Shown piece after piece: positions 3,386 through 28,890 of a stretch of 64,000 nucleotides of DNA. The notes beneath the pieces were generated by a model. That model worked only from the letters and a program-made list of their open reading frames with translations, was not told where the DNA came from and searched no databases. Every line of letters starts with the position of its first letter. Position 1 is the stretch's first letter. The position numbers and the translations under genes were made by a program. Source of the DNA: Mobula birostris (lineage: Eukaryota). Location: assembly GCF_030028105.1 (NCBI RefSeq), contig NC_092393.1:54880125-54944124 (forward strand), read 5' to 3'.

Positions 3386-5185
3386 GACAATAGACAATAG
3401 ACAATCGGTGCAGGAGTAGGCCATTCAGCCCTTCGAGTCAGCACCACCACTCACTGTGATCATGGCTGATCATTCACAATCAGTACCCCGTTCCTGCCTT
3501 CTCCCCATATCCCTTCACTCCACTATCTTTAAGAGCTCTATCTAACTCTTTCTTGAAAGCATCCAGAGAATTGGCCTCCACTGCCTTCTGAGGCAGAGCA
3601 TTCCACAGATCCACAACTCTCTGGGCGAAATTCTTTTTTCCTCAACTCCGTTCTAAATGGCCTACCCCTTGTTCTTAAACTTAAACTGCGGCCTCTGGTT
3701 CTGGACTCCCCCAACATCGGGAACATGTTTCCTGCCTCTAGCATGTCCAATCCCTTAATAATCTTATATGTTTCAATCAGATCCCCTCTCATCCTTCTAA
3801 ATTCGAGTGTATACAAGCCCAGTCGCTCCAATCTTTCAACATATGACAGTCCTGCCATCCCGGGAATTAACCTCGTGAACCTACGCTGCACTCCCTCAAT
3901 AGCAAGAATGTCCTTCCTCAAATTTGGAGACCAAAACTGCACATAATACTCCAGGTGTGGTCTCACCAGGGCCCTGTACAACTGCAGAAGGACCTCTTTG
4001 CTCCTATACTCAACTCCCCTTGTTATGAAGGCCAGCATGCCATTAGCTTTCTTCACTGCCTGCTGTACCTGCATGCTTACTTTCAGTGACTGATGAGCAA
4101 GGACACCCAGATTTCATTGTACTTCCCCTTTTCCTAACTTGACACCATTCAGATAGTAATCTGCCTTCCTGTTCTTGCCACCAAAGTGGATAACCTCACA
4201 TTTATTCACATTAACCTGCCCACTCACCCAACCTGTCCAAGTCACCCTGCATTCTCATAACATCCTCCTCACATTTCACACTGCCACCCAGCTTTGTGTC
4301 ATCTGCAAATTTGCTAATGTTACTTTTAATCCCTTCATCTAAATCATTAATGTATATTGTAAATAGTTGTGGTCCCAGCACCGAGCCTTGCAGTACCCCA
4401 CTAGTCACTACCTGCCGTTCTGAAAGGGACCCCTTAATCCCTACTCTTTGTTTCCTGTCCGCCAACCAATTTTCTATCCATGTCAGTACCCTACCCCCAA
4501 TACCATTTGCTCTAATTTTGCACTCTAACCTCCTATGTGGGACCTTATCAAAGGCTTTCTGAAATTCCAGGTACACTACATCCACTGGCTCATAGTTATA
4601 TCCTCAAAAAATTCCAGAAGATTAGTCAAGCATGATTTCTCCTTGGTAAATCCATGCTGACTCGGACCTATCCTGCTATTGCTATCCAAATGTGTCGCTA
4701 TTTCATCTTTTATAATTGACTCCAGCATCTTCCCCACCACTGGTGTCAGGCTAACTGGACTATAATTCCCTGTTTTCTCCCTCCCTCCTTTCTTAAAAAG
4801 TGGGATTACATTAGTTACCCTCCAATCCACAGGAACAGGTCCTGAATCTATAGAACATTGAAAAATGATTACCAATGCGTCCACAATTTCTATAGCCACC
4901 TCCTTAAGTACCCTGGGGTGCAGACTATCAGGACTGGGGATTTATCAGCCTTCAGTCCCATCAGTCTATCCAACACCATTTTCTGCCTAATGTGAATCTC
5001 CTTCAGTTCCTCTGTTACCCTAGGTCCTCCGGCCACTATTACATCTGGGAGATTGTTTGTGTCTTTCCTAGTGAAGACAGATCCAAAGTACCCGTTCAAC
5101 TCGTCTGCCATTTCTTTGTTCCCCATAATAATTTCACCCGTTTCTGTCTTCAAGGGCCCAACTTTGGTCTTAACTAGTTTTTTCC
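3386..5185 (-). mobile_element. CR1 LINE reverse transcriptase fragment, 5'-truncated
   Basis: Consecutive frameshifted ORFs with FQKAFDKVPH, QGSVLGP, KFADDTKL and LVRPHLEY motifs. (TATTGTC)n tail at about 3386-3405. Confidence 0.92.
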
Positions 5186-5204
5186 TCTCCCCATCCTCTG
5201 CTTT

Positions 5205-6127
5205 AAATTCCTGTTCATTGGGACCTGTGCATTTTATCCCAGTTAAGCAGCTGCCACATTTAGCTGAAGTTTCATGGAAAAATATTTTTAAAAAAAATAT
5301 GTGTGTGTGTGTGTGTGTTTAAAAAGGCAGACTCCCACTTAACTGAGCAACAAATTATGTACTTAAATGAAAATACAGAACAAATTAGAACACTATCAAT
5401 TTGACTACAGTCCTGTAAACCTGTGTATTAGTTTTAATTGTTATCGTTAGGGGAATTCATCCAGTGTGCAGGGCATTCTCTTGATTGATTGCAAATGAAC
5501 AAAATCAGTGCAGACACCTGGTGTAGATATTGAACTACGTTCATACAATGCTTTCAATGATTGCATCATCCAAATCTTCATTTTCATTGTCACCTTCAAG
5601 ATGATCGTCGATACCTTCAAACTCTGTAATCGTTCCATTTTCACTCGCAGCCGGTTCCGGCATCTCCAAGGCTGAACGCTTGAAACTACAGAGAACCAAA
5701 CAGCTCTGAATTGTCTTACTGCTTATTTCTCGCCAACTATCAGTGAAAAAAAAACACTGCTTTTTTGGACACGCAATTGACAGTATTTAAAATCTCTAAG
5801 CACATGTAGTGTCTGACGGCCACACAGGCGCACGTGTCTGACACTGATTAGAAACCGTTCCGCAACAATCTCCTGTTCCAACTAACACACACAAAATGCT
5901 GGAGGAACTCAGCAGGCCAGGCAGCATCCATGGGGAAAAAAAAGTACAGTCGACGTTTCGGGCCGAAATCCTTCGGCAGGACTCCTGTTCCAATTAAGCG
6001 GCACAAAACCGCGAATACACTAAAGGAATGCCGGCTGTTTTCTCTGTTAGTTTTTGTCCTTTAAGAGTTGTCCAAAATAAGCAGCTGCCTCGATTTACCC
6101 TGAGCCAATTAACCGGAACCCACAGTA
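5205..6127. mobile_element. Probable Tc1/pogo-type non-autonomous DNA transposon with nested Penelope-derived insert (5882-5981)
   Basis: Right end ccaattaaccggaacccacag-TA resembles a TA-flanked TIR; left end degenerate. The nested insert has the TSD CTCCTGTTCCAA (5870-5881, 5982-5993). Confidence 0.35.
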
Positions 6128-7235
6128 CACTCAAAGACTGGCCCCACAGCCGTCTGTGGTAATCAGTTCCACAGATTCATCGCCCTGGGGTTGAAGAAAT
6201 TCCTCCTCATCTCTGTTCCAAAGCGGCGTCACTCTTTTCTGAGGCTGCGCCGCCCTTGTCATAGACTCTCCCCCCAATTTAGATTTAGTAGAGTTATTGT
6301 TGTTGTTCGTCCATCGTTGACGTCGATGAGGACCTCGACACCATTATTGATGGTGTCAAGACTAGCGCGTGATTTGGATTTAAGTGAGGGAGAGTTGCGC
6401 AGCGTCAGTCTCACTCTCTCTTCCCAATTCTCATCTGGGTCCAGTAGCAAGACAGAGTCTAGACGGCTGAAGATGGGACTAGGCGCAGTGGATGACCAGG
6501 ACGTCTTCTGTGTCTTGTCCTGCTCTACACGTTCCACGACGCTTGCAGAGACCGCCTTCTTGACCGTTGGACCTTCCATAGGTCTCGTCCGCTCAATCCG
6601 CCGGAGTCTGTCTTCACATGCTGGGATAGGCAACTCCCTATCACACCGAGGGTTTGAGACCCGTCGGCTACCCTCACCTGGTTTAGCCGGCCTGTCAAAG
6701 CCGTTGCCCGGGGTGTGGCCGCTGTAGCATGCAAACAGCTACGGGGAGCCACAAGTGAGAGCTGAGTGCCAGGTGGGGACCAAAGGTGGACTAACCGCCT
6801 TGAAAATGTTCCCCCACCAGAGGTGCTACCCTTCACTGACACCCCATACACCCCAGTATTTAGTATTTAGTAGAGTAGAGAGTTTATAATAGAAGTAATT
6901 AATAGGTTAGTAGGCGGTGACTTGCAGAGAGTCGCAACGAACACCCCGGCGTACGTGGAGAGAAAGAGTTGAACAGGATGCGGACCAAACGCAGGAAAAT
7001 GCGGGCAGCCCAGGCAACCGGACAGGGATGGATGGGTTGGGCTGAAAGAGCTGCCCCCTCCCACCCCACCCGCTGATGAACTCTCCCACTCGAAGGTTCT
7101 GCACTATTTTTTGCGTAAAGTTCTTTGGGAACATCTGGGGTGTTTTATAAACGCAAAGAGCTACGGGGTCAGAAGCGGCAGATCCGGTGTCTGTGAGAGA
7201 CGATACTATCGCTGGCTGCTGGTCATCGCCAAAGC

Positions 7236-7364
7236 TGAGAACAATTCACACTCACAACACGCTGGAGGAACTCAGCTGCCCGACCTGCTGAGTTCCTCCA
7301 GCGTGTTGTGAGTGTAGCTTTGATCCCAGCGTCTGCAGAGTATTTTGTGTTGAGAACAATTCAC
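7236..7364. mobile_element. Penelope-derived insert with inverted terminal duplication and 14-bp TSD
   Basis: TSD TGAGAACAATTCAC at 7236-7249 and 7351-7364. Perfect 29-bp inverted repeat at 7248-7276/7287-7315. Confidence 0.8.
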
Positions 7365-9580
7365 GCCCTGCATATTAGGGGAAATATCGCGAGACATAAA
7401 TATCAGAATCACAATCGGGTTTATTCTCACCGGCGCGTGACGTGAAATGTGTTAACTTAGCAGCAGCAGTTCAATGCAATAAATAATCTAACAGAGAGAG
7501 ACACTAATAATAATAATAATAAATAAAATAAGGCAGAGTTTGGAATCTTGAGCTTTCTGCACCCATGTTGTAAGAAGTGGGACATTTCGGCAACTTGGTG
7601 GTGTTTTGCAGCCTTAGTGATCCCTACCACCCACCCCGCCGTCTCTTTGACGCACTACCATCAGGAAGGAGGTACAGGAGCATCAGGACTAGGACTGCCA
7701 GACTGAGTAACAGCTTCTTCCCACCAGGCTGTGGGATTAATGACTATCCTGTCACCACCGGGGTGTCGTCGCTAGGACAACGGGCTGTTTACTGTTTACC
7801 TGTAACAACACACACACAATGCTGGAGGAACTCAGCAGGCCAGGTACCGTCTACCGTCGACTTTTCGGGCCGGGACCCTTCGTCAGGACTCCTGTTTTTG
7901 TTTATCCGGGCTGCGCACTTCACAAGCGTTTTAAATTATATTTTATTAACTTATTTGTGGTAATGCTGTGTGCGATATATGTTTTGTGGGGCTCTGTGGT
8001 TCGCAGGGACGTCGTTTCGTTTGGTTGTATATGTGTACAGCCAGACGACAGTAAACTTGATCTGATGGCAGTTGTTTCTGGTCGAAGTAGAAACACTCGA
8101 CTTAATCAGTTTGCGAGGTAGTTAACTCCCGGCAATTCTGGTTAAGTTCGCTTGGTCTGTGTTACTGATGCAGAGATGTACACTTTTTAAAATCGGTTTG
8201 TGTCGAGAGAGTGTGGACGATAGACAAAATGGAGAGGGTCTGGGCACGGTAAGTCAGTGTTCGGTGCAGCAAGAATGGTCATGATCTGACTCTCCTGTGG
8301 ACACGCTCGGGGTTATTGAGGAACCTTCCAGGAGTACGGTTACCGCTTGTGCTCCTCCGTTAATATTAAACTTCAACCGACACACCTCGTTATCCCCAGT
8401 AGCACCATCGCCGCCACGGCCTCCAGCGCCGGGAGGAACCAAACACCGCCTGGGGAACGGCTATGTGAGGCACCTCGCTCGCTTCCCGTCGCCTGCTGGT
8501 GGAAACCCCCAGCGCAATCCATCCCCCCCTATCTGTCTCCGTTTCCGGCGCCAGGAACAGCGCCTCACTCCCCACCTGAGCACGTTGCGCTGTTCCGACT
8601 CGGTGCGGAACTCTACTGACTTCAGGAAACTCGTCTGTCTTAGATCTGGTCAGTTATCTTCATCCTCCATCTCAAGTCAAGTCAAGTCGCTTTTTATTGT
8701 CATTTCGACCATCAACTGCTGGTACGGTACACAGTAAAAACGAAACAACGTTCCTCCAGGACCATGGTGCTACATGAAACAACACAAAACTACACTAGAC
8801 TAAGTGAGACAACACAAAAACTACACTAGACGACAGACCTACACAGGACTACATAAAGTGCACATAACAGTGCAGGGCAATACAATAAATAATAAACAAG
8901 ACAACAGGCACAGTAGAGGACAAATTACAATGTAATAATAAACGATGTAGATGTCAGTCTAGTCTCTGGCTATTAAGGAGTCTGATGGCTTGCTGCCATT
9001 TGGTTCAGATTAAGTCTCTGTCTCTCTTTCACTCACATTTGCGCAATCACACCCGCGGAAAGAGGACATCGGCTACCTCTACGACCATTCCCACTGTGCC
9101 TTCAAACCCGGGTGCCGAAACTGCGCCCGTGGTACTAGTCTGACTAAATATTAATGATTCGCTTTACTTGCACGTCGAAACATACTGTGGTCTGCGTCGT
9201 TTTCGTCAAATCAAATCACCGAGGATTACGTTGGGCAGCCCGCAAGTACCGCCACGCTTCCGGCGTCGATACAGCAATGTCCACAACTCACTAATCCTAA
9301 CCGTATGACTTTGGAACGCGGGAGGAAACCGGAGCACCCGGGGGAAACCCACGCGGTCACGAGGAGAACGTACAGGCAGCGGCGGGAATCTTGTGGCTGG
9401 GCGCTGTAAAGTGTTGCGCTAAGACATGTCCAGTCGTTTTTCAACTTTTTTTCTCTCAAGTTGATTTGTTTAGGCATGAACTGTCTGGCTGTAACATACC
9501 AAAAAGTTGAAACAGTATCTGTGGGGTTCCGAAAGGATGGAATGCAAATAGTCGGAGACTCGCGTATTTTATGGCTGAAA

Positions 9581-9586
9581 TTTAAT
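9581..9586 (-). other. Candidate NPB polyadenylation signal ATTAAA
   Basis: ATTAAA on the minus strand about 260 nt after the stop codon, in AT-rich non-repeat sequence. Not proven. Confidence 0.35.
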
Positions 9587-9848
9587 AATTTGTTCCATTA
9601 CAGATATTAATACCATTTATACAATGATTCTGCATACATACCGTGGGGTGTTTACTTATGGACAATTAAAAAAAACATTCAGCAACCGCTCAGTCACAAA
9701 CAAGTTTTTTTTTAACTTAAGAGTTTGACTGGACGTCAAGATGGAAATTACGGTGATATCTGGGGTTGGTCGTCTGAATCCTCTGAAAGTAAAAACATTC
9801 GGCGCCGGGTGGGGTTCGGGGAGTTGGTGGCCCTGGTGGAGAGGCGGA

Positions 9849-9977
9849 TCAGACATTTGCACACTCTCGACTGTCCAGCGAAAGGAAAACGTCCGCCTTG
9901 CACTGAAAAGTGTTGAGGCCGTCTGGGAGAAGCTGGCAGGTTTGCAGACTGGGAGAGATGTCTTTCACACACACGGC
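9849..9977 (-). CDS. NPB: Prepro-neuropeptide B, coding exon 2 (C-terminal Cys-containing propeptide)
   Basis: Acceptor gtctctgttgcag|GCC. Reads AVCVKDISPSLQTCQLLPDGLNTFQCKADVFLSLDSRECANV*, matching the 4-Cys C-terminal region of vertebrate NPB precursors. In frame with exon 1 (131 aa total). Not in the ORF track; translated by hand. Confidence 0.94.
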   Translation of the reverse strand, partial: AVCVKDISPSLQTCQLLPDGLNTFQCKADVFLSLDSRECANV

Positions 9978-11681
9978 CTGCAACAGAGACGGAGAAGAGA
10001 TTCAGCCCGGCCGCTACCGGAAGGACAAACTGTACACTCAGTGTGAAGTGCATTTATCTCGTGTACATCGACACTATTACGGCGGACTGTGTGTTTGCAA
10101 CAAACCAACAACACACCCGAGGGTGTGCTGGCGGGCCGCCCGCAGGTGTCGCCAACAAGGCGTGCCCACGCGGGACAAAACATAACTCGAGCAACAAAAC
10201 GCGAGTTTGCCCTCCCACGCACTGTCACGGTCCTCTAGCCCCAGGACAGCCAGTCTGCAAGAGGAGTTGGCGATGAATACCGAATTCCAGAAATAAAATC
10301 GGACCACACTCGAACCGGTCGCCACATCGGGCAGCACCTGTGAGCGTGAAACCATTAACGTTTCAGATCGGCCAGTCTTTCTCAGTCCGCAGGAGAAATT
10401 ACTGAATGCGGGTTATACACGAGAGACCGGCAGGTTATTTATTAAACTAGCGAGTTTAACTAGGAAATTCATTAACTCTTTCCTTCGGATGTTTTGCGAT
10501 ATTTTCAGGGACTGGAATTGCGGAAGATTGTGTCCCCATAGGGGTCACCTCACGGTGGGATGCTCTGCAAACCTGCTCGGAGTCTGCGCGTATCCGAAAC
10601 CCCTCGCCCCCTGCGGCATATCTGGGGCCCTTTCATCCCCGGGAAATTTCTGGAAATCCCTCGCCCCACTGCACTTCAGCGCCTTTTGGTTCGCTCGCAC
10701 CCTCTCCAAACCAGCCATAGAGTCATAGAACACTACATTAAAGAAACAGGCCTTCCGGCCCATCCAGTCCCTTCCGACCTATTATTTTGCCTGGACTGTA
10801 TCCCTCCATAGCCCTCCCGTCCATGCAGTGTGCTTATCCAAGCTTCTCTTGGGTGCTACAGTCGAACCCATATCCGTCACTTCCGCTGGCAGCTCGTTCC
10901 ATCCAATGAGTGAAGAAGTTCCCCCTAAATATTTCACCTTTCATCTTTAACCCATCTGCCTTCTACGCCTCTGCCCTTAACCCCACCCACCCCTCCTCCT
11001 CCCCCTCTGCTCCCTTTCCCTTCCTATCCCTGTGTCGTCCCGGCTCTCGCACCCCAGATCTTTACTCCACGCCAGACGAGAGAACGGCGCCTATGTTGGT
11101 TTGCGTCGCGGGATAGAATGAATATTTTGAGTTCGGTAAGAGTCCAATCACGTTGACCGCCACTTTAAATACAAAATATTTGAGTTAGTTAATGTAAATG
11201 CGTTATAGCTGCATTCCGAACACTCATGTTAACCAGCAAATAAGTTTAGTACTTGCTATCACTGCTCCGAGTCCGATAGCCCCCTTGGCACTGAGGGGCT
11301 CTCGCGTGGTCCTAAAGCCCACTGAATGTGCGGAAAACAAAGGATAGTTTCCCAGATTTTAGACCAAAAAACATGAGCGGACGGCCCAACGCGTCTAGTC
11401 CGCCATTCTATCGTGGCTGATCTATTATCCCTCTCAACCCCATTCACCTGCCTTCTCAGCGTAACCTACAACGACCTTACAATTCAAGAACCTATCAACC
11501 TCCGCTTTAAATATACCCAATGACTTGCCCACCGCAGCCGTCTGTGGCAACAGATTCCATGAATTCACCACCCATTGGCTAAAGAAATCCCTGCTCATCC
11601 CTGTTGTAAAGGACGTCCCTCTGCTGTGCCCTCTGATCCTGGACTCCCCGACTATTGGCAACATCCTCTCTCCGCGTCTAC

Positions 11682-12334
11682 CAAAGTTCTCTTTATTTTT
11701 TTTACAGCTGAGCGGTGTGACCATTGTACTAAGTAGGACATTTTTATATGGCCCGAAAAATGCGTGGCACGCTAAATGCTTTTTTTGTGTAATATGCATA
11801 GTATAAATACTTATTAGGTTATGATTTTTTGACAGATTACTTACCAACAAAGTCAGAATATAGAATTTTTTCACATCAAACAAACACAAAGCATACATCA
11901 CAACACAAGTAAGTCTGTCAGGCAATCAAAGCCACTGACAGGCACAATGGCAAAAATAAAATGTTTTGACTAGACGGCGTCAGCTACCAGCTTCCATTCT
12001 GTTTTTATTGTTATAATTTGTAACAGTATTATAACACATCACTGAAGATGTGTCCAGATGCATCAATAGATGTATGTACACACCTTAACTTGAAACACTG
12101 ACAATGTAAATACATTGAGGCTCTAAAATGTTTCAAAGTAAAGGTTTGTGGTAGGTTTATTATTTAGAAAAATACATAGATTATATTCAGTAATATATAA
12201 TTAATTATGGGGTATTTTGCAATTATATTAACATTATATAAAAGCAAATTCCGGCTGCGTAGTTAAAGGCTATGTGCGCGCGAGCATTTCTGTTACTGTG
12301 CGGTCGCGCACGGCGTAATTTAGAGGGAACAGTG
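11682..12334. mobile_element. hAT-type non-autonomous DNA transposon in the NPB intron
   Basis: Ends CAAAGTTCTCTTTA...TTAGAGGGAACAGTG (degenerate TIR). 8-bp degenerate TSD gcgtctac/acatctgc. Inserted into a CR1 3' fragment (about 11400-11680). Confidence 0.55.
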
Positions 12335-12510
12335 ACATCTGCTCTATTTTATATAGAGATTCAGTTAAAATATTTACTTTGGTGAAAACACCGCCATAGT
12401 CTAGGAATGCCCCTCAAGCTTAGGATAATGTGTCTTTAAAGTAACTGATAAAGTTATTTTGAATTTCTGAGACTCCCGTCTCTCTCTCTCTCTCTCTTTC
12501 TAATCGTTGT

Positions 12511-12670
12511 AAACTCAGATTCTGCAGACGCTGAAAATCCAGAGTAGCACCTACAAAATGCTGGAGGAACACAGCAGGTCAGCTTGCATCTGTGGAAAGG
12601 AGTAAACAGTCGACGTTTCGGACCGAGACCCTTCATCAGGACTGCCGATTCGGTATTTTGCCGGTGTTAC
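12511..12670 (-). mobile_element. Short Penelope-derived non-autonomous insert in the NPB intron
   Basis: Same sequence as the terminal repeat of the GIY-YIG-bearing elements at 300-1245 and 14610-15640. Flanked by a 12-bp direct repeat TCTAATCGTTGT (12499-12510, 12671-12682). Confidence 0.75.
12607..12644 (-). ncRNA. Minimal type I hammerhead ribozyme motif (Penelope pLTR-type), intact core
   Basis: Minus strand CAGTC-CTGATGA-A-GGG-tctcgg-TCC-GAAA-CGTC/GACTG. Helix I CAGUC/GACUG, core CUGAUGA and GAAA, 3-bp helix II, palindromic ACGU helix III, GUC cleavage triplet. Confidence 0.7.
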
Positions 12671-12889
12671 TCTAATCGTTGTGTGTGGTCTGTCTGTGTG
12701 GAAGGGTGGTGGTGGTGGTGGGGGGGTGTTGTTGGAGGTCTGTGAGTGTGGCGTGTGTGGGAGGAATGACCTCCTCGTGTCCGCGCATTGTGGGTGTGTG
12801 CGTGGGTTTGATGTGTGTGGGACATTGACAGCTTTCAGTTTGCCCTCTCGCGTACTTGCATACATTGTCTCCACCTGTTCATCCCCCTC

Positions 12890-13650
12890 ATTCCCCTCCG
12901 ACCCTCGACTGGCCTTCACCCTCTCTGTTGGTTTCCCCCGTTGAGGTCTCTGTCCGTCTCCTTATCCCTCCTTTACTCTCTCCCCCCACCTCTCTCCCCC
13001 CCTCCCTCTGCCCCCTCCCCCCTCTCCCTCTCTCTATGCCTTCGACTTTCTTTGCTCACTCTCCTTATTTCTGTCTTCTCCCGCTCTCCCGGGATCATCC
13101 CAGCTTCCCGTTCATCCGATGAAGAGTGGGCGAGTCTGGACCGTTTCTCGCTCCGCAGATGCCGAACATCTGGTCCGTATATTTATTTTTTCTCCTTTTC
13201 TCTGACCCTCCCATTCACTCCCTGACTCGCGATCTATCGTCCCCCACCTCACCCATTCCCTCTTTCCGTCCCATTCGCTATCTGCCCCGCTCTTTTCCCC
13301 ACTCTCTTCTCTCATTCCCCCTCATCGTCTCACAATCTCTCTCTAACTCTCCCCTATCTCTGCCTCATTATTTTCTCTCTACCTCTTTCTCTCTCTACCT
13401 TCCTTTCTCATTCCTTCTCTACCTCTTGCCATTTTCTCTCTCATTCCATCGCTCTGCCCCAGTCTCTCTGCGTCTCCCCCAGTATTCCTGTCTCTTCTAC
13501 ACAACTCTCTCATCCCCCTCTTTCTCTCTCCCCGTTCCCCCTCCTTTCTTATTATCTCCCATTCTCTACCTCTCCTCTCCCATTCCCTCTCTCTCGATTC
13601 ATTATTACACCTCTCCTGCGTCCCTCGTTCCCCGCCTTTCCCGCTTCTCA
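12890..13650. repeat. Polypyrimidine/polypurine low-complexity tract (about 760 bp) at the 5' end of the NPB intron
   Basis: Strongly C/T-biased on the plus strand. Confidence 0.85.
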
Positions 13651-13651
13651 C

Positions 13652-13918
13652 CATGTTTTTGACGAACATCGTCGCTCTGCCTTGAACAGCCTGCTCCGAC
13701 ATCACGCTGTTCTCCGCCGAGTCTGCCGCTTCGCTTGCCTCCGACCTGCGGACGTAGGGTGAGCGGCGGATCCCGGACAGGAGTCCGGAAGCTCTCCCCA
13801 CCGAGTAGTAACTGGGTCCCGTCGCCTGCTTGTACCACGCCTCTGCCGGGCTGGGCACTAGACTAGAGAGGATCACGCACACCAGGGTCATCTTCAGCGA
13901 TGTCTCGAGTGCAGGCAT
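13652..13918 (-). CDS. NPB: Prepro-neuropeptide B, coding exon 1 (signal peptide + mature NPB)
   Basis: ATG at 13918 (aaaaacATG). Translates [63 protein letters not shown]...FVKNM. Hydrophobic leader, then the NPB signature [24 protein letters not shown] and a dibasic RR. Ends at a phase-0 donor ATG|gtgag. Alternative start at 13891. Confidence 0.96.
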
Positions 13919-14030
13919 GTTTTTTGTCCGAGTCTGCACCGTGTCTGGCCGGCTCGCAGTCTGTGCTCTCCCGCCTGTCCGCCCGCTGTCTGGCAGGAAC
14001 TCAGAGCTGCAAACTTTAAGCCCAGACCCC

Positions 14031-14071
14031 TTAAATAGTCGCGTTTTCTCCTGCTAGTGACGCTGCCGTCA
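14031..14071 (-). promoter_or_regulatory. NPB core promoter: TATA-like TATTTAA plus two inverted CRE half-sites (TGACG-ctgc-CGTCA)
   Basis: TATTTAA on the minus strand at 14037-14031, about 113 nt above the ATG. TGACG at 14058-14062 and CGTCA at 14067-14071. CpG-rich context. Confidence 0.6.
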
Positions 14072-14609
14072 GACGCACGCACCTTTCAATATAAGTTAGT
14101 CACATCCCCTCCCCCCCATACATTGTGGGCGACGACAATTCATCTTGAATCATTCAGGGACTGGGAACCTTTCTCAGCTGGCACTGCCGAGTCCCTGATC
14201 GTATTTACTCCGTACCCGTATTTTAACTTTTTTTTTGCATAATTCTATATAGTTGAATATTTCTGCAAGAAGACGAATCCCAAGGTAGTATGTACTGACA
14301 TGAATTTACATGAATCTGACAATGAATTTACTTTGAACCCAGTGGTAGTAGTGGTACACAGGAGGGCTACCAAAGAGGCGAGGGAGGCTACCGTGGAGAT
14401 TGACCAGCTCCACACTTGACAGAGAAGGGGCATCAAAGTGGTTAGAGACCGTTGCATGTCAGGAGGCTGGCCCGGCAGATGACACCAGGACCATTGCGAA
14501 AAGAACTGGGAGGATTCCAGATTCAAGGCTGTTCGTCGGCATTTTTCAGTACACAAGGGCAGAAGAGAACAAAATGATTGCTGGAAATCAAGCCGGAATT
14601 CTACCACCA

Positions 14610-15640
14610 GGCGCGTCTTTATCTCCCCAACAATCCACACCCCGCCCCCGCTTTCCACAGGGATCGCTCCCTCTGCGATTCCCGTGTCCATTCGTCCCTC
14701 CCCACTAATCTTCCACCCGGCACTTCTCCCTGCCAGCGACAGAAATGCTCCACTGGCCCGTTCACCTCCCCTCTTGCTTCCATTCAGAGCCCCAAGTCGT
14801 CCCTCCGGAGGAGGCAACACTACACCTGCCAATCTGTCGGGATCGGCCTCTGTACCCAGTGCTCCCGGGGCAGGCTCCTCTATGCTGGTGAGACCCGACG
14901 TAAGCTGGGGAGCCACTTTTGTCGATCACCTCTGCTCCGTCTGCAAACAGCGAAATTTCCTGGTGGCCAACCATTTTAATTCCTATCCCCATTCTCGTTC
15001 CAACAGGTCGTTCCATGACTTCCTCCTCTGTCACGTTATGGCGTCTCTCCGGGTGGAGGAACAACACCTCATATTCCGTCTAGGTACCCTCCGATATTAT
15101 GACATGAACATCAATTTCTCCCTCCGGTATTCACCCCCAATCCTCCCCTCCTCCTCTATTTCCCACTCTGGCCTCTCACCTGCCTATCACCTCCCTCTGA
15201 TGCCCCTCGTCCTTCCTTTTCCCCTTCACCCACGGTCCACTCTCCCCTCCCGTCACATTCCTTCTTCTCCAGCCCGTTTCCTTTCCTACCACCTGACTTC
15301 ACCGATCACCATAGATCAGAGGCCACCAACATTTTTAACGCTATGGGCCCCTCCCATTAACCGAGGGGTTCGTGGACCGCAGCCGTAAACGCTGCCTGAG
15401 CTGCCGAGTTCTTCCAGCACTTTGTGCGCATCGCTCTGGATTTCTGGCATCTGCAGAATCTCGTGTTTATAATTCACCATTCACCATCTAACTGGTCCTT
15501 CTTTCCCTCCCCCCACACCGCCTTTTTATTCTGGCGTCTTCCCCCCTCCGTTCCAGTCCTGAAGAAGGGTCTCAGCCCAAAACGTCGGCTATTTATTCAT
15601 CTCCATAGATGCTGCCCGACCCGCTGAGTTTTGTGTGTGT
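14610..15640 (+). mobile_element. Penelope-like element 3' part (GIY-YIG remnant + pLTR) upstream of NPB
   Basis: Frameshifted PAFHRDRSLCDS...PCQRQKC...HYTCQSVG...CSRGRLLYAGETRRKLG...LVANHFN. Degenerate hammerhead at about 15554-15590 (GAAA changed to AAAA). Confidence 0.8.
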
Positions 15641-17354: not shown

Positions 17355-17750
17355 CTCTCGAGAAGCTGACAGCGATGCAGGTGGATGCTTCCCTGGTGTC
17401 ATGGATTCTTGATTACCTGACTGGCAGACCACAGTACGTGTGCTTGCAACACTGTGTGTCCGACAAAGTGATCAGCAGCACTGGGGCTCCACAGGGGACT
17501 GTCTTGTCTCCCTTTCTCTTGACCATTTACACCTCAGACTTCAACTACTGCACAGAGTCTTGTCATCTTCAGAAGTTTTCGGATGATTCTGCCATAGTTG
17601 GATGCATCAGCAAGGGAGATGAGGCTGAGTACAAGGCTACGGTAGGAAACTTTGTCACATGGTTTCATTTATGGTTTTATTACTATTTATTATTTATGGT
17701 GCAACTGTAACGAAAACCAATTCCCCCCGGGATCATTAGAGTATGACTAT
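17355..17750 (+). mobile_element. Rex1/Babar-type LINE RT fragment with 3' tail
   Basis: SWILDYLTGRPQYV...TGAPQGTVLSPFL...QKFSDDSAIVG. Confidence 0.85.
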
Positions 17751-20299
17751 GATTTGCCTGTAACGCCGCTGGCATTCAGGGCAGCAATGAAGGGCCCTCC
17801 CCCCTCCCCCCCTCCCCCCCCCCCCCCCATCTCCGGCTGTGCTCAGGGCTTCCTTCATCGTGTCAGGAGCTTCCTCTCGGTGTTCTGTACTGGTAGGTAC
17901 GCAGATCCCGGGTGGACACTCGGGAATACCGTCACACTCAGACGGAGGATTCTCCATTGCTGTCAAGGCAGTACCAATGAAAACAGTAACGGGATGCAGA
18001 ATAGAGCGTTACTGTTCGAGAGGGTGCAATGCAGTCAGGCAACTTCAGAAGGAGGTAGACGGTGAGGGCAAGAGCTCCATCTTACCACGCAAGAGGTCCA
18101 TTCAATAGCCTGTCAGCGGGATGGAAGCTTTTATTAAGCCTGGCGATACGTGTTTTCGGGTTTTTGTATCTTCTTCCCGACGGGACGAGGGGAGCAGAGA
18201 GAATGTCCGGGGTGTTGGCAGCAACGAGAAAAGTGAAGAAACAACGTACAATATTGCAGTGCTGTGTGCTCCTGGTTCTATTGAAACCGCTCCATAACAG
18301 TGTTCTTTCAGTTTTGATCTCAAATCCACATCAACATGGGCTGAAGCCCGCGTTGCTTGGCAACTGTCCGCAGATCTGACACTGGTAAAGTCAGTGTTAT
18401 GGATTGTGAATTGCTGTGCAATCCGCTTTCTAGACACTGACAGAACAGCTGTACGACATCCTGGCCCGAGCTCAAAAAGCAATTCAGTCGGGTTAACTAG
18501 GCACACTTTGCCTTTAGCATTTGTCTCAAAAATCCAATTTCTATTTGATGTTAGATTCTCGATCACTCTTGCTTATGGGAATACACAGAGTTTGTACATG
18601 CCTATTTGATCTGCTCTTGCTTGTTTACTCTCCAGTTTGTTTCCAGCTAACTTCAGGTAATTCAAATCGGATTTTTTTCCCAGTTGTATATGTTTTACAT
18701 TTGGCTTTACGCTGTCCCTAACCGCATGAAATCCAATTATGTTATGATCACTGTTATCTAGATGTTCCCCACACTTCTAAAAGACAGACTGCAATCTCCA
18801 TTATTTCCCTTTTTCGGGGGAATACCTTGCCTTTCTGCCCTTTATTTTGTTTTTTTTTCCCAGCAATTGATGTCCCTTCTGCCGTCAGGTGGATATTGTT
18901 CAGAAGATGTGTTGTAGGGGGTGCCCAGGGAGGGGGCAGCACCTCTGGTGAGAGTTGTCATGTCCATGTTCACTCACCTTTGGTCCCCACCTTACACTCT
19001 GCTCTCACCTGTGGCGCCAAGCTGTTATTCATGTGCGACAGCGGCCGCACCCCAGTAACCACTTCAACGGGTGGACTAAACCAGGTGAGGGTAACCAGCG
19101 GGACATTACCCCGCCGAGAAAGGGACTTGCCTGTCCGGCGAGTTCAGCTCTGCCGGACTGGGCGGATGAGATCAACAGTGAGAACTCAGGGCCAGGAAGG
19201 CGGCTCTGCAATGAAGGGCATGACGAGGCACAGAAAAAAAGTCCTAGTCATCCGCTTTAACCAGTTCTGGACACCACTCGTACCACCGGACCCGGACCTG
19301 CGAGCTCGGGAGAGTGGAACTGCCCCCGTGCCGCGGCTTTCCCACTTTAAAAATAAACTCTCACAAACAGACTTCTCTGTCATTGTATCCGACCGATAAT
19401 CAATCATTCAGACCTTTTCTTCATGCACCTCAACTTCACAATTTTGAAGTCTAAAATAAACCTAAAACAAATTAATAATCTTTTATTAGGTTCACGCTCA
19501 TCAGATTCAGTTTCGGAAATCTCTGTCTGCTCTGGTTAGAACTGCAATACAATACTGTCTTCCATCAGTTCATTTGCTGCCCGGTTCCCCCGCCTTTATA
19601 GCTTCTCTGAAGTTCCTGAATCAGTTCTACGCAAAAACATGTTGCAGGTGAAGGAAATTTTCAGAGAAGGGACCAGCGATAGTGCAGGATTGCAATAAGG
19701 GTCACTTTCAGTAACTCTGCACCGCCTATTCTCAGTATTTTTTTGCACAATTTGTCTTTTGCAAATTGATTGTTTGTCAGCCTTTATGCGTAGTTTTTCA
19801 TAAATTGTGCTGTATATAGGGCAGGATATAGTAACATATCCATAGATAGTCACAGGTTTTTTCCCCAGGGCTGAAATGACTAGCACACGAGGGCACAGTT
19901 TTAAGGTGCTTGGAAGTAGGTACAGAGGAGGTTTTTTACGCAGCGAGTGCTGAGTGTGTGGAATGGGCTGCCGGTGACGGTGGTGAAGGCGGAAACGACA
20001 GGGTTTAAGAGACTCCTGGATAGGTACATGGAGCTTAGAAAAATAGAGGGCTATGGGTAAGCCTGGGTAATTTATACGGTCAGGACGTGTTCGGCACAGC
20101 TTTGTGGGCCGAAGGGCCTGTATTGTGCTGTAGGTTTTCTACGTTTCTATATGATAAATTTACTCTGGCTTTTAACTCTGAATCTGCCTACAACAGACAG
20201 AAAATACACATGTACCAGGAATGTGTGTTAAAGCGTGAAAAAAAGGTGCAAAGACCAAAGAAGAGGCATTTTACCCGAACACAGAATGCCCTCGTTGGG

Positions 20300-23200
20300 G
20301 TGCACCGAGTTGAAGTGATTGAGTCTTTGGCTCTTCGAGGCTTCGGCCAAGAATGAGTAAAGGCAACAAAAAATCCCTGCAGGTAGAGTTTCCCCCTTCT
20401 TTATATCTGCTCAGTTAGGGCAGTAGGGATGTCGGGCGGGATAGTTGAATGCTCCTCTTGCAGGATGTGGGAAGGCAGAGTGTTCCTGGCTACAACACCC
20501 GCGAGAGGTGCATCCAGCTGCAGCTTCTAACACCCCGCGTTACGGAGTTGGAACTGGGTGAATTCCGGATCATCCGAGAGGCCGACGGGAGAGGTAGTTA
20601 CACCCAAGGTGCAGGACACAGGAGACCGGGTGACAGGAAGGGGGAAGGGGCCAGTGCGGAGTACCCCTGTGGCCATCCACCTCAACCACAGGTGTATCAG
20701 TTTGGGTACTGTTGTGGGGATGACCTATCGAGGAAAGCCAGAGCGGTCGCGTCTCTGGCACTGAGTCTGTGTCTGCGATTCAGAAGGGAAGGTGGTGGGG
20801 TGGAAGAGGGTGGTGATAGGGGATTCGTTAGTCAGGTGTACAGAAAGGAGGTTCTGTGGGCGAGAACGAGATTCCCGGATTAGATTAGATTTTGAGGACA
20901 CTCAGTCCTCGTTGATTGTCATTTAGAAATGCATGCATTAAAAAATGATACAACGCCCCTCCAGAATGATATCACAAGAAAAATACAGGACAAACCAAGA
21001 CTAAAACTGACAAAACCACATAATGATAACATATAGTTACAACAGTGCAAAGCAATACCATAATTTGATAACGAGCATGGGCACGGTAAAAAAAAGTCTC
21101 GATAGCCTCATCATCGTTCCACGCAGGCGGTATGTTGGTATGTTGCCTCCCGGGTGCCAGGGTCCGGGACATCTCGGATCGAGTCCTCAGAATTCTCAAA
21201 TGGGAGGTTGAACAGCCAGAGGTCGTGGTCCATGTAGGTACCCATGGCATAGACAGGAAGAGTGAGGAAGTCCTGCAGAGAGAGTTCAGGGAGTTGGGTG
21301 CTCAAAGGGCAGGACCTCCAGAGCTGTGATCTCTGGAATGCCACCCGTGCCAGGTGCAGCTGAGACCAGAAACAGGAAGATTATACAGTTTAATATATGG
21401 CTATGGTGTTGATGTTGGAGGGAGGACGGGAGATTTTTGGATCATTGGGCTCTCTTCCAGGGAAGACCTTAGAAGAGACAGTTTGCACCAGAAGGGAAGG
21501 GGACTGACATCCTAGCGGGGAGGGTTGTTGGTGCTGTACGGCGGCGGTGGCGGGGTGGGGCGTTTAACTAGGTTTACTGGGAGGTGGGAACCAGAGTGTC
21601 AGAAAGTTAGTGGAAAGATTGTGGAGACAGATGTTGGTTATGACCCCAGACAAAGTCAGGAATCAGAAGGTTGAGGTTAGTGCGACTTGTGTCCGGAGCT
21701 GCGAATGATTCAATGGAAGAGTTAGGGTAGGAAAGGCGGGTGAGTTTTGGGCACGGAATTATGATATTACAACCATTAATGAGACTTTGTTGTGGGACGG
21801 GCGGGACTGACAACTCAGTAATCCGGGGTTCCGTTGTATTCGGCGTGACAGAGTGGGAGGGGGGTGGCGTTACTTGTCAGGGAAAAATCACGGCGGTACC
21901 CTGTCAGGACAGACTGGATAACTCGCCTGGTGAGGCGCTATGGGTGGAACTGAGAAGTAAGAAAGGTTTGACCACGTTAATGGGGATCTTTTACAGACCA
22001 CCCAACAGTCCGTGGGACTTAGAGGAACAAATCTGTGGCGAGATCGCAGACTCTTACAAGAAACACAAAGTTTTTTTTTATAGTAAACCACAAACAAGAG
22101 AAAATCTGCAGATGCTGGAAATCGGAGCAACACACACAAAATGCTGGAGAAACTCAGCAGGCCAGGCAGCATGTATGGGAAAGAGTACAGTCGATGTTTC
22201 GGGCCGAAATTCCAGTGATTTTAACTTTCCACATATTGACTGGAATTCCCATTCTGTAAACAGGCTGGATGGGAAAGAGTTTGTCAAATGTATTCACGGA
22301 AGTTTCCTTAATTAGTACATAGAAATATCGACGAGAGAGCGTGTGATACTGGATCTCCCGTTAAGGAATGAGACAGGGCAGGTGACAGAAGCTCGTGTAG
22401 GGGAACACTTTGCATCCAGTGACCAGAATGCCATTTAGTTTCAAAGTAAATATTCAAAAAGATAGTGCTGGTTTGCGGATTCTAAATTGGAGAAAGGCAA
22501 ATTTTGATGGTATCAGAGGTGATCTGGAAACATGGATTGGGACAGGCTGTTTTCTGGCACAGGTGTACTTGGTAAGTGGGAGGTCTTCAAAAGCAACATG
22601 TTGAGAGTACAAAGCTTGTATGTGCCCATCAGAATAAAAGATGAAGATAACAAGGGTAGGGAACCTTGGTTTTCAAGTGACAAGAAACAAAAGGAGCAGC
22701 ATAGCAGGTATAGTCAGGTGGGAACAAATGAGGTGCTTATGGAGAATAGGACATGCAAGGGAACACTTAAGAAAGAAATCAGGAGCACTAAAAGAAGCAT
22801 GAAGTTGCCCTAGTAGACAAGGTGAAGGACAATCGGAAGGAATTCCACAGATATGTTAAGAGCTAAAGGATTGCAAGGGACAAAATTGATCTTCTGGAAG
22901 ATCTTAGTAGGAACCCATGTGTGGAGCCAAAACAGATGGGGGAGATAGAAACATAGAAAACCTACAGCACAATGCAGCCTCTTCGGCCCACAAAGTTGCG
23001 CTGAACATGTCCCTACCTTAGAAATTACTAGGGTTACTCATAGCCCTCTATTTTTCTAAGCTCCATGTACCTATCCAAAAGTTTCTTAAAAGACCCTATC
23101 GTATCCACCTCCACCACCGTTGCTGGCAGCCCATTCCATGCACTCACCACTCTCTGTGTAAAAAACTTACCCCTGACATCTCCTCTGTACCTACTCCCAA

Positions 23201-26200
23201 GCACCTTAAACCTGTGTCCTCTTGTGGCAGCCATTTCAGCTCTGGGAAAAAGCCTCTGACTATCCACATGATCAATGCATCTCATCATCTTACACACCTC
23301 TATCGGGTCACCTCTCATCCTCCGTCGCTCCAAGGAGAAAAGGCCAAGTTCACTCAACCTGTTTTCATAAGGCATGCTCCCCAATCCAGGCAACATCCTT
23401 GTAAATCTCCTCTGCACCCTTTCTGTGGTTTCCACATCCTTCCTGTAGTGAGGACACCAGAACTGAGCACAGTACTCCAGGTGTGGTCTGACCAGGGTCC
23501 TATATAGCTGAACATTACTTCTCGGCTCCGAAATTCAATTCTACGATTGATGAAGGCCAGTACACCGTACGCCTTCTTAACCACAGAGTCAACCTGTGCA
23601 GCTGCTTTGAGTATCCTATGGACTCAGACCCCAAGATCCCACTGATCCTCCACACTGCCAAGATTCTTACCATTAATACTATATTCTGCCATCATATTTG
23701 ACCTACCAAAATGAACCACTTCACACTTATCTGGGTTGAACTCCATCTGCCACTTCTCAGCCCGGTTTTGCATCCTATCAATGTCCCACTGTAACCTCTG
23801 ACAGCCCTCCACACTATCCACAACATCCCCAACCTTTGTGTCATCAAAGATCTTAATTTTTTTTTGCATCTGTTTTACTTGGGAGGTGGATACAGAGTCT
23901 ATAGAAGTGAGGCAAAGCAGCATCAACTTCATGTACTCTGGGCAGCTTACAGAGGAGGAGGTGTTTTCTACCCTGGGGCAAATCAGCGTGGATAAATCCC
24001 CAGGACCTGACAAGGTGTTCCCTCGGACCCTACGGGTGGCAAGTGCAGAAATTGCCGGGGCCCTAGCAGAGATATTTAAACCATCCTTAGTGACAGGAGA
24101 GCCAGTGTTGTTGCGCTGTTTAAGAAAGGCTCTAAACATAAACCAGGAAATTATAGGCTGGTGAGTCTGACGTCAGCAGTGGGAAAGTTATCGGAAGATG
24201 TTCTAAGGGACCGATATATAAGTATTTGGATCGATGTGGACTGATTAAGGATAGTCACCGTGGCTTTGTGCATGGCAGGACATTTCTAAACAATCTTATA
24301 GAGTTTTTTCGAGGAAGCTACCAGGAAAGTGGATGAAAGCAAGGCCATGGATGTTGTCTGCATGGACTTTAGTAAAGGGTTTGACACGGTGCCACGTGGT
24401 AGCTTAGTCAAGAAGGTTCAGTCGCTTGCATTCAAGACGAGGTAGTACATTGGATTAGACATGGATTTGACGGAGAAGCCAGAGAGTAGCAGTAGATGGT
24501 TTCCTCTCTGACTGGAGGCCTGTGACTAGTGGAGTGCTGCAGGGATCGGTGCTGAGTCTTTTGTTGTTTGTCATCTATACCAACGATCTGGTTGATAAAG
24601 TGGTTAACTGGATCAGCTCATTTGCAGATGACACCAAGATCTGGGGAGCAGTGAAGGAAGGAAGACTATCACAGCTTGTGAAATGGAGACATCTCTTTTT
24701 CCCTTATTAGGAAGCGAGAGAGAGAGCCTGTGGTATGCTGAATTACCGGGTGAACGAGTAGTTTTTGGGGTCCTGCAGCTCTGTGTCCTTATTGATGCTT
24801 TGCTGCATGCTTGGGTGCTCGGCGGAGGGCGCTGATGCTTTTTGCTGGTGGGGGAGGGGTGCTGTTGCTTTACTGCTGCTTGTGTGTGGGAGGAGGGAGG
24901 TGGGGGGTCTTTGGGGTTCTACTGTTTTATCTGTTATTCATCCTTTGGGGCACTCCTGTGTTTTCATCGATGTTTGTGAAGAAAAAGAATTTCAGGATGT
25001 ATACTGTATACTTTTCTCTGACATTAAATGTACCTATTGAAATATTGCAAAGGGATCCAGGTCAGCTGGAAAATTGGCAGATGGAATTTAAAAACACAAA
25101 CACGAGGAAATCTGCAGATATATACACACATTCTTTATTTCTCTCTCTCCTTTTTCTCCCTCTGTCCCTCTCACTATACCCCTTGCCCATCCTCTGGGTT
25201 TTTCCCCCTCCCCATTTTCTTTCTCCCTAGGCCTCCTGTCCCATGATCCTCTCATATCCCTTTTGCCAATCACCTGTCCAGCTCTTGGCTCCATCCCTCC
25301 CCCTCCTGTCTTCTCCTATCATTTTGGATCTCCCCCTCCCCCCCCACTTTCAACTCTCTTACTAGCTCTTCTTTCAGTTAGTCCTGACGAAGGGTCTCCA
25401 CCCGAAACATCGACTGTACCTCTTCCTAGAGATGCTGCCTGGCCTGCTGCGTTCACCAGCAACTTTGATGTGTGTTGTTAGATGGAATTGAATGCAGGCA
25501 TGTGCGAGGCGATGCACTTTGGTAGGACCAACAAGGGTAGATCTTACAGTGTGAACGGTAGGGCACTGAGTGTTGTAGAATGAGGAGTGTGGTAGAACAA
25601 AGGGATCTGGGAATACAGGTCCATAATTCGTTGAAAGTGGCGTCACAGGAAGATAGGGTTGTAGAGATATTTTTGACACATTGGCATTCATAAATCAGAT
25701 TACTGAGTACAGGAGATGGGATGTTATGTTGATGCTGTATAAGACGTTGGTGAGATCTAACTTGGAGTATTGTGAGCAGTTTTGGTCACATTCCTGCAGG
25801 AAATTTGTAAATAAGGTTGAAATCGTGAAAATTTACAAGGATGTTGTCGGGTCTGAAGGACCTGGGTTATAAGGGAAGATTGAGAATTGATAGAAGTATA
25901 CAAAACTAAGAGGGGTATAGATAAGGTAAATGCAAGTAGTCTATTTCCACTGAGGTTGGGTGGGACTACAATCATGAGTTAAGGGTGAAAGGTGAGAAGT
26001 TTAAGGGGAACATGAGGGGAAACCTCTTCACTCAGAGGTTCATGAGAGTGTGGAATGAGCTGAGCTGCCAGTGCAAGTGGTGTGTGCGAGCTCGATTTCA
26101 ATGTTTGAGCAAAGTTTGGATAGGTACGTGGATAGTAGGGGTATGGAGAGCTATGTTCTCAGTGCAGTTTGTTGAGAGTAGGCAAATTAACTGTCTTTGG

Positions 26201-26250
26201 CATAGACTAGATGGGCCAAAGGGCCTGTTTCTGTGCTGCACTTTTCTATG
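20300..26250 (+). mobile_element. Near full-length decayed CR1 LINE with several nested insertions
   Basis: Domains in order: Cys-rich ORF1 start (20430-20580), esterase (CCLPGARVRDISDRV...VHVGT), endonuclease (LWVELRSKKG...GIFYRPPNS), RT (QGSVL...FADDTK), C-terminus and 3'UTR. Inserts at about 20881-21130, 22080-22213, 22946-23845 (minus-strand CR1), 24680-25040 and 25089-25479. Confidence 0.85.
25380..25415 (+). ncRNA. Hammerhead ribozyme motif, near-intact (helix III palindrome lost)
   Basis: AGTC-CTGACGA-A-GGG-tctcca-CCC-GAAA-CATC-GACT, inside a Penelope-type insert flanked by the TSD AGATGGAATT (25079-25088, 25480-25489). Confidence 0.5.
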
Positions 26251-28214
26251 ACTATTTGTAACAAGCCAATTTAATTACACAAACGTAAATAAATAGGAAA
26301 GTTCTAATAATCACAGCAGACACATGATTTCAAAATGACCAAGTTTGGGGTTCAAATAACTAACTTCTGGAAAAGCAAAATGGGAGAGAGGTTGGGTGGG
26401 CATAATGGTTCGCACGGTACTTGACCATACCAGCGACCAGAGTTCGATACCCGCCATTGTCTGTAAGCATAGTGGTTGGCATGGCGCTTGACTGTACCAG
26501 TGACCCAGGTTCAATTCCCACCACTGTCTGTAAGTGTAGTGGTTGGCAAAGCGCTTGACAGTACCAGTGACCAGGGTTTGATTCCCTGCATTGTCTGTGA
26601 GGCGTTTGTACGTTTCCCCCGTGATCACGTGGGTTTCGTCCGGGTGCTCCGGTTTCCTCCCACAGTCCAAAGACATGCCAGTTGCCAGGTTAATTGGTCA
26701 CTGTAAATTGCCCTGTGATTAGGCTAGGGTCACACTGGGGGATTGCTGGGAGGTGTGACCTGAAGGGCTGGTAGGGACTGTTCCACATTGTATCTCAATC
26801 AATAAAAATAAAAAATGAATCACCCGATATTACCGGGGTGAATGACTGTACCTCGCCAATCAACAGGTAGAGCTGGTCTGGGTGGAGCAGGCGGGTGAAA
26901 CACAGGTGATAGTTGCACAAAGATTCCTGAACAGGAGTGGTAAGGTACAGCATCAAGCAACTAGAGACCGTTGTAACCAGGGTTATACAGTAATCATGAA
27001 GACTCAGTCTATAGGTAGACCAGTTTAGCAGTAACAGTGCCAGGCAGCAATGCGCGGGATAGGAAAAAGCTGCGTAAGATCACCCTTCTGTCATGGGCAG
27101 CAGCCTCCCCAGCATCGAGGACGTCTTGAAAAGGCATTCCCTCAAAAAGGAGGCATTGATCATTAAAGGCCTCCGTTGCCCAGGACATGCCCTCTTCTCA
27201 TTGTTACAATCACCGAGGAGGTCAGCAACGGGAAGACACCTACTCAACGTTTTAGCCAGAGCTTCTCCTCTCCGCCAGCAGATTCCTGAAAGGACAAGGA
27301 ACCCATGAACACTTCCTCACTATCCTGCTTTCTTCCCGCACTATATTAAAAAAATATTCTTATTGTAAGTTATAGTTTACTTTTTATGTATTGCTGCTAC
27401 TAAACAAATTTCATGACATATGTCGGTGATAATAAAACTGATTCTGACCAGGGGAACAGACCCTTTTTTTCACATCTAGTATTACATAATGAAGAAAGGA
27501 TAATTAATGATCTGCTAGTTAAACCTGCTAACATGTCAGTAGTGGAAACACGTCGTCACGTCAAGACTGAAGGTGACCTGGTTCAATTTGCAGTCGGGTT
27601 CTTGATCTCAGCAAACTTCGAAGGAACGACACATGAACAGTGGACTGGGAACTGACACTGCAGATCTGAAGGTAACTGAGCGATGACTAACATTCAAAGA
27701 ATTAATATGTGGTTACAAGTCTTTCATGTCTCTTCAAAGAAGAGAAATTCATCAGGGAAAATGATCCAGCCCTGGCTAATAAGAGTTAAAGTTTGTATTC
27801 GATCAAAGGAAAAGGCAAACTATTGCAGAGAAAAATAAACAGCAAGCCTGAAGATGGAGAAGAGAATGTAGCGAAGTTAAGACTTTGATAAGGAACATCA
27901 CTCGCTCTCCCACAATGTTCTCTCCTCTCTCCGTGGTGCTGAGGCTATGAAGACTGCCCCGGCTGCTGTGCTCCATGTCCACAAGTATGATGAACTGATA
28001 CCCAGGCTTTGTGCCTACACCAGGGTTCAGATCCAAGGACTCATTTTGGTTCAGAAAGTTGTGGCTCGCTTCTATTGTTTTCATGATTCATGTTTCTTCC
28101 CCCCGCCCCCCCCGCCTTTCTCGTGCGCATCAGGATCCTCTTGGTTTTTGCGTCTTGGTTTTATTTTTTAAAAATTGGGCTCTTTTGGGTTTTTTTGCTT
28201 TGCGACTGCCTGTA

Positions 28215-28890
28215 AGCATGCAAGTACGGCAGGCAGTGAAGAAAGCTAATGGCATGCTGGCCTTCATAACAAGGGGGATTGAGTATAAGAGCAAAGAGGT
28301 CCTTCTGCAGCTGTACAGGGCCCTGGTGAGACCACACCTGGAGTACTGTGTGCAGTTTTGGTCTCCAAATTTGAGGAAGGACATTCTTGCTATTGAGGGA
28401 GTGCAGCGTAGGTTCACGAGGTTAATTCCCGGGATGGCGGGACTGTCATATGTTGAAAGATTGGAGCGACTGGGCTTGTATACGCTGGAATTTAGAAGGC
28501 TGAGAGGGGATCTTATTGAAACATATAAGATTATTAAGGGATTGGACACGCTGGAGGCAGGAAGCATGTTTCCACTGATGGGTGAGTCCAGAACTAGAGG
28601 CCACAGTTTAAGAATGAGGGGTAGACCATTCAGAATGGAGTTGAGGAAAAACTTTTTCACCCAGAGAGTGGTGGATACATGGAATGTTCTGCCCCAGAAG
28701 GCTGTGGAGCCCAAGTCTCTGGATGCTTTCAAAAAAGTGATGGATAGAGCTCTTAAAGATAGCGGAATCAAAGGTTATGGGGATAAGGCAGGAACGGGGT
28801 ACTGATTGTGGATGATCAGCCATGATCACAGTGAATGGTGGTGCTGGCTCAAAGGGCCGAATAGCCTACTCCTGCACCTATTGTCTATCT
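28215..28890 (+). mobile_element. Young CR1 LINE 3' fragment with uninterrupted C-terminal ORF
   Basis: About 195 codons MQVRQAVKKANGMLAFI...KGYGDKAGTGY*, then 3'UTR. Same subfamily as 3386-4080. Confidence 0.92.

Follow-up and report, generated by a model that had tools for sequence, protein, structure and literature searches.

The hammerhead motif in the intron of the NPB gene is most probably the extreme 3' end of an abundant Neptune-type Penelope-like retroelement, and likely an inert relic, with cutting of the NPB pre-mRNA rare or absent. The motif belongs to a family of very high copy number in which it is linked to RT and GIY-YIG coding sequence; the copy in NPB is truncated at its 5' side, ends in an inverted remnant and lies within a target-site duplication, and NPB contigs are spliced. 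The window analyzed is the whole 64,000-nt stretch of Mobula birostris DNA (NC_092393.1, positions 54,880,125 to 54,944,124), to which all simple coordinates refer.

Hammerhead motif and structure of the insert

The insert and its borders comprise the following features:

12499-12510, plus strand: target-site duplication, left copy, adjoining a (CT)n run at about 12480-12498
12511-12606, minus strand: tail of the Penelope-like element, 3' of the hammerhead, of an old subfamily (10/86 to 13/77 differences from the subfamily majority)
12644-12607, minus strand: type I minimal hammerhead, from sequence reading and a descriptor match, with the predicted cut at 12612^12611
12645-12673, no strand: 5' junction, a 10-nt spacer and a 19-nt inverted tail remnant (shuffle test)
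12671-12682, plus strand: target-site duplication, right copy, 12/12 identical to the left copy

An intact minimal hammerhead had been claimed here from the letters alone, and the minus strand from 12644 to 12607 reads as described. The core CUGAUGA (12639-12633) is followed by a single extra A at 12632, GAAA occupies 12619-12616, and the GUC triplet stands at the predicted cut, 12612^12611 in the minus-strand reading. Helix I has five Watson-Crick pairs, or seven counting G-U, and helix II is made of two G-C pairs and a G-U (plus a U-G) between 12631-12628 and 12623-12620; the palindrome ACGU (positions 15.2-16.2, at 12616-12613) can form helix III only in a dimer. Within the motif a single position, 12622, departs from the family majority; the change replaces a G-C pair of helix II by G-U. 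The published core of minimal hammerheads from Penelope-like elements, CUGANGA ... GAAA ... UH, is present, with A12632 as the extra base between 9 and 10.1 and G12631-C12620 as the G10.1-C11.1 pair. Judged by its letters, the copy thus has all sequence features of the published class: like the hammerheads described in the available text of Cervera and de la Pena (2014; PMC4209133), it is of type I with a helix I of 4-5 bp, an extra base after position 9, a G10.1-C11.1 pair, a palindromic 15.2-16.2 and no helix III loop. Its helix II (3-4 bp, two wobbles) differs from the 7-8 bp given there for Schistosoma. A hammerhead search, proposed as a check, was divided in its outcome: a descriptor search matches the motif, and with helix I of at least 5 and helix II of at least 3 the descriptor found a match in one out of 200 dinucleotide-shuffled versions of the window, but the Rfam hammerhead covariance models gave no match either at the gathering score or at E<=10.

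The original prediction placed the motif in a 160-bp insert with a 12-bp duplication. There are indeed 160 bp between 12-bp direct repeats, but not all of the insert is family sequence in one orientation, the stretch 12655-12673 being inverted. This remnant pairs with 12541-12559 at 84% (0/2000 shuffles), and its last three nucleotides are common to the duplication, which we take as microhomology. The sequence 12645-12670 has no second occurrence in the genome at up to two mismatches; its capture as foreign DNA was considered and dropped, since the inverted tail remnant fits instead (pairing with the tail, shuffles). The NPB insert is the only one of 34 solo-like family copies to be flanked by a repeat of at least 10 nt; a clean duplication is unusual for this Penelope-like family. 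Inverted pieces adjoin 21 of 82 solo-like copies, and the NPB insert represents the shortest type of product, consisting of tail, hammerhead, 10-nt spacer and 19-nt inverted remnant.

In a related organism one contig runs across the left insert junction (11 differences in 462 nt, about 2.4% diverged), so the insertion is older than that split; contigs of a further organism covered neither insert junction. One contig of depth below 5, from a run that bears the organism label of the window, differs from it at 12660 and at 12813, reflecting alleles or errors. In all four runs the loose ends of family contigs cluster at 12641-12644, where helix I starts on its 5' side, indicating that many copies diverge there rather than at the cut site.

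The insert most likely arose as follows. A protein of the element would have nicked a site beside the (CT)n run and started target-primed reverse transcription on RNA that was still uncut, at a point some 100 nt downstream from the cut site, as has been reported for the Poseidon element of the anole; synthesis would have halted where helix I begins on its 5' side, the place at which many contigs of the family part ways, and the junction would have been sealed through a short fold-back and the 3-nt microhomology. The insert does end about 100 nt past the cut site and spans it uncut, as described for the green anole Poseidon element PAc (Frangieh et al. 2024; PMC11167929, available text), which fits internal initiation on unprocessed RNA. 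PAc belongs to another clade, and its frame starts at stem II, whereas no hammerhead was found at the frame start, upstream of RT/GIY-YIG, in the family copies studied here.

The Penelope-like family

Throughout the 4.0-Gb genome there are 1,032 matches to an exact 34-nt pattern and 13,564 to a relaxed intact pattern, with no matches to reversed-pattern controls. The latter count exceeds the 4,000-9,000 given for coelacanth and Xenopus in the available text of PMC4209133, although counting methods differ. In 1.38 Mb of control DNA we found 318 family matches, of which 215 cover the motif and 7 are strictly intact. The notion that the NPB copy is special is not supported, given these 13,564 intact-pattern copies and at least one further sense copy, likewise strictly intact, within an intron of a long CUB-domain gene (L107). 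The locus itself is thus of small weight, being one among thousands of similar stubs.

At 30 loci with the exact motif, homology reaches about 65-100 nt past the motif on its downstream side and between 3 and more than 1,490 nt on its upstream side. In other copies the upstream sequence carries RT (Pfam RVT_1, E 4.2e-5) and then a C-terminal GIY-YIG (E 6e-4, 8.6e-4 and 6.5e-3), with all RT and GIY-YIG scores below the curated cut-offs; two element fragments had no Pfam match, and a PDB sequence search with a 665-aa frame gave no meaningful match. YIDD and YIGET motifs are present in the element reading frame. A CX4CXXC linker (CKRNKCYTC) lies between RT and EN in one locus (L068) and is absent from the frame of another (L052). 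In both family copies measured, the RT/GIY-YIG frame stops 302-303 nt before the hammerhead core. Family coverage declines steadily with distance from the 3' end, and the longest stretch common to family copies, about 2.8 kb, yielded no upstream pLTR; metazoan minimal hammerheads are reported to sit in the pLTRs of Penelope-like elements (PMC4209133, in part). At one further locus (L060:5400-10000) all six frames are open for about 1,500 codons, probably because of a long simple tandem repeat.

The RT/GIY-YIG frame, linker, stop position and 3'-weighted coverage together point to a canonical Penelope-like element of Neptune/Nematis type, the clade being assigned by motifs. As in the EN+ elements Neptune and Nematis described by Craig et al. 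(2021; PMC8557442, available text), RT is followed by GIY-YIG with a CX2-5CxxC linker, the hammerhead lies near the 3' end, an inverted 5'-truncated piece is present and insertion is beside a microsatellite; unlike the full elements, the NPB copy consists of motif and tail only and is without coding sequence. The Penelope origin and dimer-type minimal hammerhead that had been proposed are thus supported, by the linked RT/GIY-YIG frames, the distance to the core and the features in PMC4209133. The same source, as far as available, describes such hammerheads as mostly single truncated copies, thousands per vertebrate genome, as here.

We also considered a non-LTR retrozyme, which shares a type I hammerhead and Penelope origin (bioRxiv 10.64898/2026.07.22.740005, available text). 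These carry tandem repeats with at least two hammerheads, and 42-44% of the Xenopus copies are intronic according to the same text; the NPB copy is a solo stub, and retrozyme identity was ruled out by the single hammerhead in insert and intron, with no tandem. Within an incomplete literature coverage, we found no publication on the NPB-intron hammerhead or on this family in cartilaginous fish; the available text of PMC4209133 names no cartilaginous fishes, and its supplementary list has more species.

The NPB gene and neighboring copies

Pfam identifies the host gene as NPB (NPBW, E 2.5e-27); the exon 2 stretch as framed gave no Pfam match. The gene and the nearby family copies are laid out as follows:

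13652-14014, minus strand: NPB exon 1, with the likely start ATG at 13918 and contig 5' ends at 13925-14014
9978-13651, minus strand: single NPB intron of 3,674 nt, GT..AG, with a contig joint of 9976 to 13651 in 4/4 runs
9575-9977, minus strand: NPB exon 2, with the stop at 9851-9849, ATTAAA at 9586-9581 and contig 3' ends at 9575-9681
7854-7891, minus strand: family copy that retains the invariant core in full but has the non-palindromic AAGU and 3 bp in helix I, past the NPB poly(A) signal
5946-5983, minus strand: family copy with a broken core, past the NPB poly(A) signal

The gene and the motif are both on the minus strand, so the sense orientation claimed for the hammerhead was confirmed; it lies about 1.0 kb from the donor and about 2.6 kb from the acceptor. 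All four runs (three studies, three organism labels) contain NPB contigs that are spliced; three of the runs are guessed to be RNA and the fourth is of unstated kind, and contigs of this sort cannot report RNA ends or splicing efficiency. Other high-copy repeats inside the intron, at about 11298-11605 and 12036-12200, have high contig depth in the runs.

Among 19 family profile matches in the window, 12 cover the motif; one of these is strictly intact and three more (7856-7889, 25379-25416 and 49889-49924) have the invariant core complete and are mainly missing the palindrome. The view of the NPB copy as the only fully intact one accordingly holds in the strict sense (1/12), but not for the invariant core. 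Likewise, of the two neighbors that had been called damaged, 5946-5983 does have a broken core, but 7856-7889 is less damaged than stated, being mainly without the palindrome. These copies had been suggested as partners reached by read-through; they lie 1.7 and 3.6 kb past the NPB poly(A) signal, and this suggestion was not borne out.

The copy at 25379-25416 (plus strand) is of the young subfamily, with an intact core, an AUC triplet and a non-palindromic helix III word, and its predicted lowest-energy fold is the hammerhead shape, unlike that of the NPB copy; the copy at 49889-49924 (minus strand) has all invariant core bases, a GUU triplet and again a non-palindromic helix III word. Further family pieces form a small fold-back at about 7254-7341 and a same-strand pair 94 nt apart within 15385-15639.

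Age of the copy and intactness of the motif

The intact motif sits on an old tail. Relative to the subfamily majority, the motif has 1/38 changes and the tail 13/77 (binomial p 0.008), and the NPB copy is an outlier among old copies: none of 68 same-subfamily copies has at most one motif change, and none of 69 control copies of similar tail age is strictly intact. Such a contrast could suggest that selection maintains a co-opted hammerhead that tunes NPB mRNA in cis, like the intronic CPEB3 ribozyme in mouse neurons (PMC10919898, in part), and the presence of the insert's left junction in a related organism is in keeping with this. If the NPB copy did adjust splicing, a neuropeptide gene would have recruited a ribozyme from a transposon, a case comparable to CPEB3. 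However, against the 19 nearest relatives the contrast drops to 1/38 versus 10/86 (Fisher p 0.17), three of the tail changes are adjacent, and the copy was chosen for its intactness; its sole motif change weakens helix II, broken neighbors keep their CpGs too, the NPB pre-mRNA holds no partner, and misfolding is predicted in context. We consider co-option very improbable.

The CpG-rich surroundings account for much of the intactness. Eight of the 38 motif positions are CpG positions, and when only non-CpG positions are counted, 3 of 68 same-subfamily old copies have at most one motif change. The CpG observed/expected ratio is 0.78 at 5001-15000, compared with a mean of 0.28 and a maximum of 0.55 in 138 control stretches, and three old copies at 5.9-12.6 kb, one of them with a broken core, keep 11/12 motif CpGs versus 69/250 for old copies in the control stretches. 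These values suggest low methylation around NPB; the whole NPB gene sits within the CpG-rich domain. We thus ascribe the intactness of the NPB copy mainly to slow decay in a CpG-rich region, together with chance and the choice of the best copy. Given that the best copy was selected for attention, chance would be enough, although weak selection or gene conversion may contribute.

The disagreement between the ages of motif and tail could alternatively mean that the motif was refreshed by gene conversion from young copies, near-identical donors being plentiful; this would account for an old tail joined to an intact motif with no need for a function. Yet no diagnostic young-subfamily bases were found beside the motif, the tail is of the old subfamily with private changes, and slow CpG decay already accounts for 8/38 positions, so we hold gene conversion to be the least probable of the explanations weighed. 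A young subfamily bearing the NPB tail was also rejected: of two tail patterns, one occurs nowhere else and the second finds 35 matches at up to one mismatch, and the 22 relatives examined are old, mostly decayed copies.

Folding and cleavage

Intronic hammerheads of amniotes are ultraconserved and active as monomers. Like them (PMC6765202, in part) and like the HDV-like ribozyme of CPEB3 (PMC10919898, in part), the NPB copy is sense-oriented and sits in a neural gene's intron. Those are conserved, self-folding and confined to a single locus, whereas the NPB copy is a transposon stub among many thousands, and it lacks helix III and, according to prediction, would not fold by itself.

In models that leave out tertiary contacts and proteins, the 38-mer monomer is predicted to misfold: its fold is no better than that of shuffles (z 0.03), the target hammerhead fold has a probability of 0.0005, and with flanks the pairing probability of helices I and II is at most 0.02. 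The dimer hammerhead is disfavored as well: a non-catalytic dimer is predicted at -25.0 kcal/mol, the double-hammerhead homodimer at -8.7 and each monomer at -8.5. A lone copy would be unable to form helix III and would need a second copy or the element protein, neither of which is supplied in cis.

Cutting in trans, through ACGU and helix I pairing with family RNAs or with the aid of protein, might nonetheless happen occasionally, with little effect because the exons would stay tethered and be spliced. The core and palindrome are intact, and the summed family contig depth at 12530-12683 is 17,670-28,639 in the three presumed RNA runs, although this is a poor measure of expression. For the anole element, the available text of PMC11167929 reports that the hammerhead required protein for cleavage and was itself dispensable for insertion in vitro; the same text reports that no anole RNA-seq reads end at the hammerhead cut site. 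The dimer energies above speak against cutting in trans, and in the available text of PMC4209133 the metazoan minimal hammerhead monomer showed no cleavage and even dimers in cis were only weakly active in vitro. We therefore regard occasional trans cutting as unlikely, if less so than co-option. Even a cut of the NPB intron might be tolerated, as introns cut by a hammerhead still splice, while the faster HDV ribozyme blocks splicing (PMC2995048, in part).

Strand distribution in introns

The family carries more weight than the locus, as its more than 13,000 intact-pattern copies could provide a powerful strand-count test of Penelope hammerhead cutting in the cell. If intact hammerheads cut host pre-mRNAs in trans with family RNA or element protein, one would expect them to be depleted in sense orientation in introns genome-wide, with the NPB copy an exception selected for tuning neuropeptide B output and the first domesticated Penelope hammerhead, a proposition to which we give very little credence. 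For the count, five same-strand clusters of CUB-domain matches were taken as long genes of known direction (inferred, unannotated), and 138 stretches of 10 kb were sampled inside them (L072-L209). Motif-covering copies in these genes were 102 sense and 113 antisense (p 0.50), core-intact copies 14 and 17, and the youngest copies 23 and 22. As every copy was presumably intact at insertion, this lack of sense depletion argues against selection on sense insertions. An effect of the NPB hammerhead on splicing or output, raised in the original prediction, is thus not supported, given also the spliced contigs in 4/4 runs and the 13,564 copies.

Among intronic copies that are strictly intact there is a tilt toward antisense (1:6 sense to antisense, p 0.125, or 2:7, p 0.18), in counts that are underpowered, and across one 1.9-Mb long gene (C1:17.55-19.48 Mb) intact-pattern copies were 3 sense and 9 antisense. 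The pooled count is 3:12 (p 0.035; Fisher versus 102:113, p 0.058), a figure drawn up after the data had been seen and combining two definitions of intact; by the relaxed intact pattern alone it is 3:11. This weak antisense lean of strictly intact copies is a lead only, as is the better preservation of the motif relative to its own tail. Dense CUB-domain exons on both strands at C25:52.92-53.17 Mb likely represent a tandem gene cluster.
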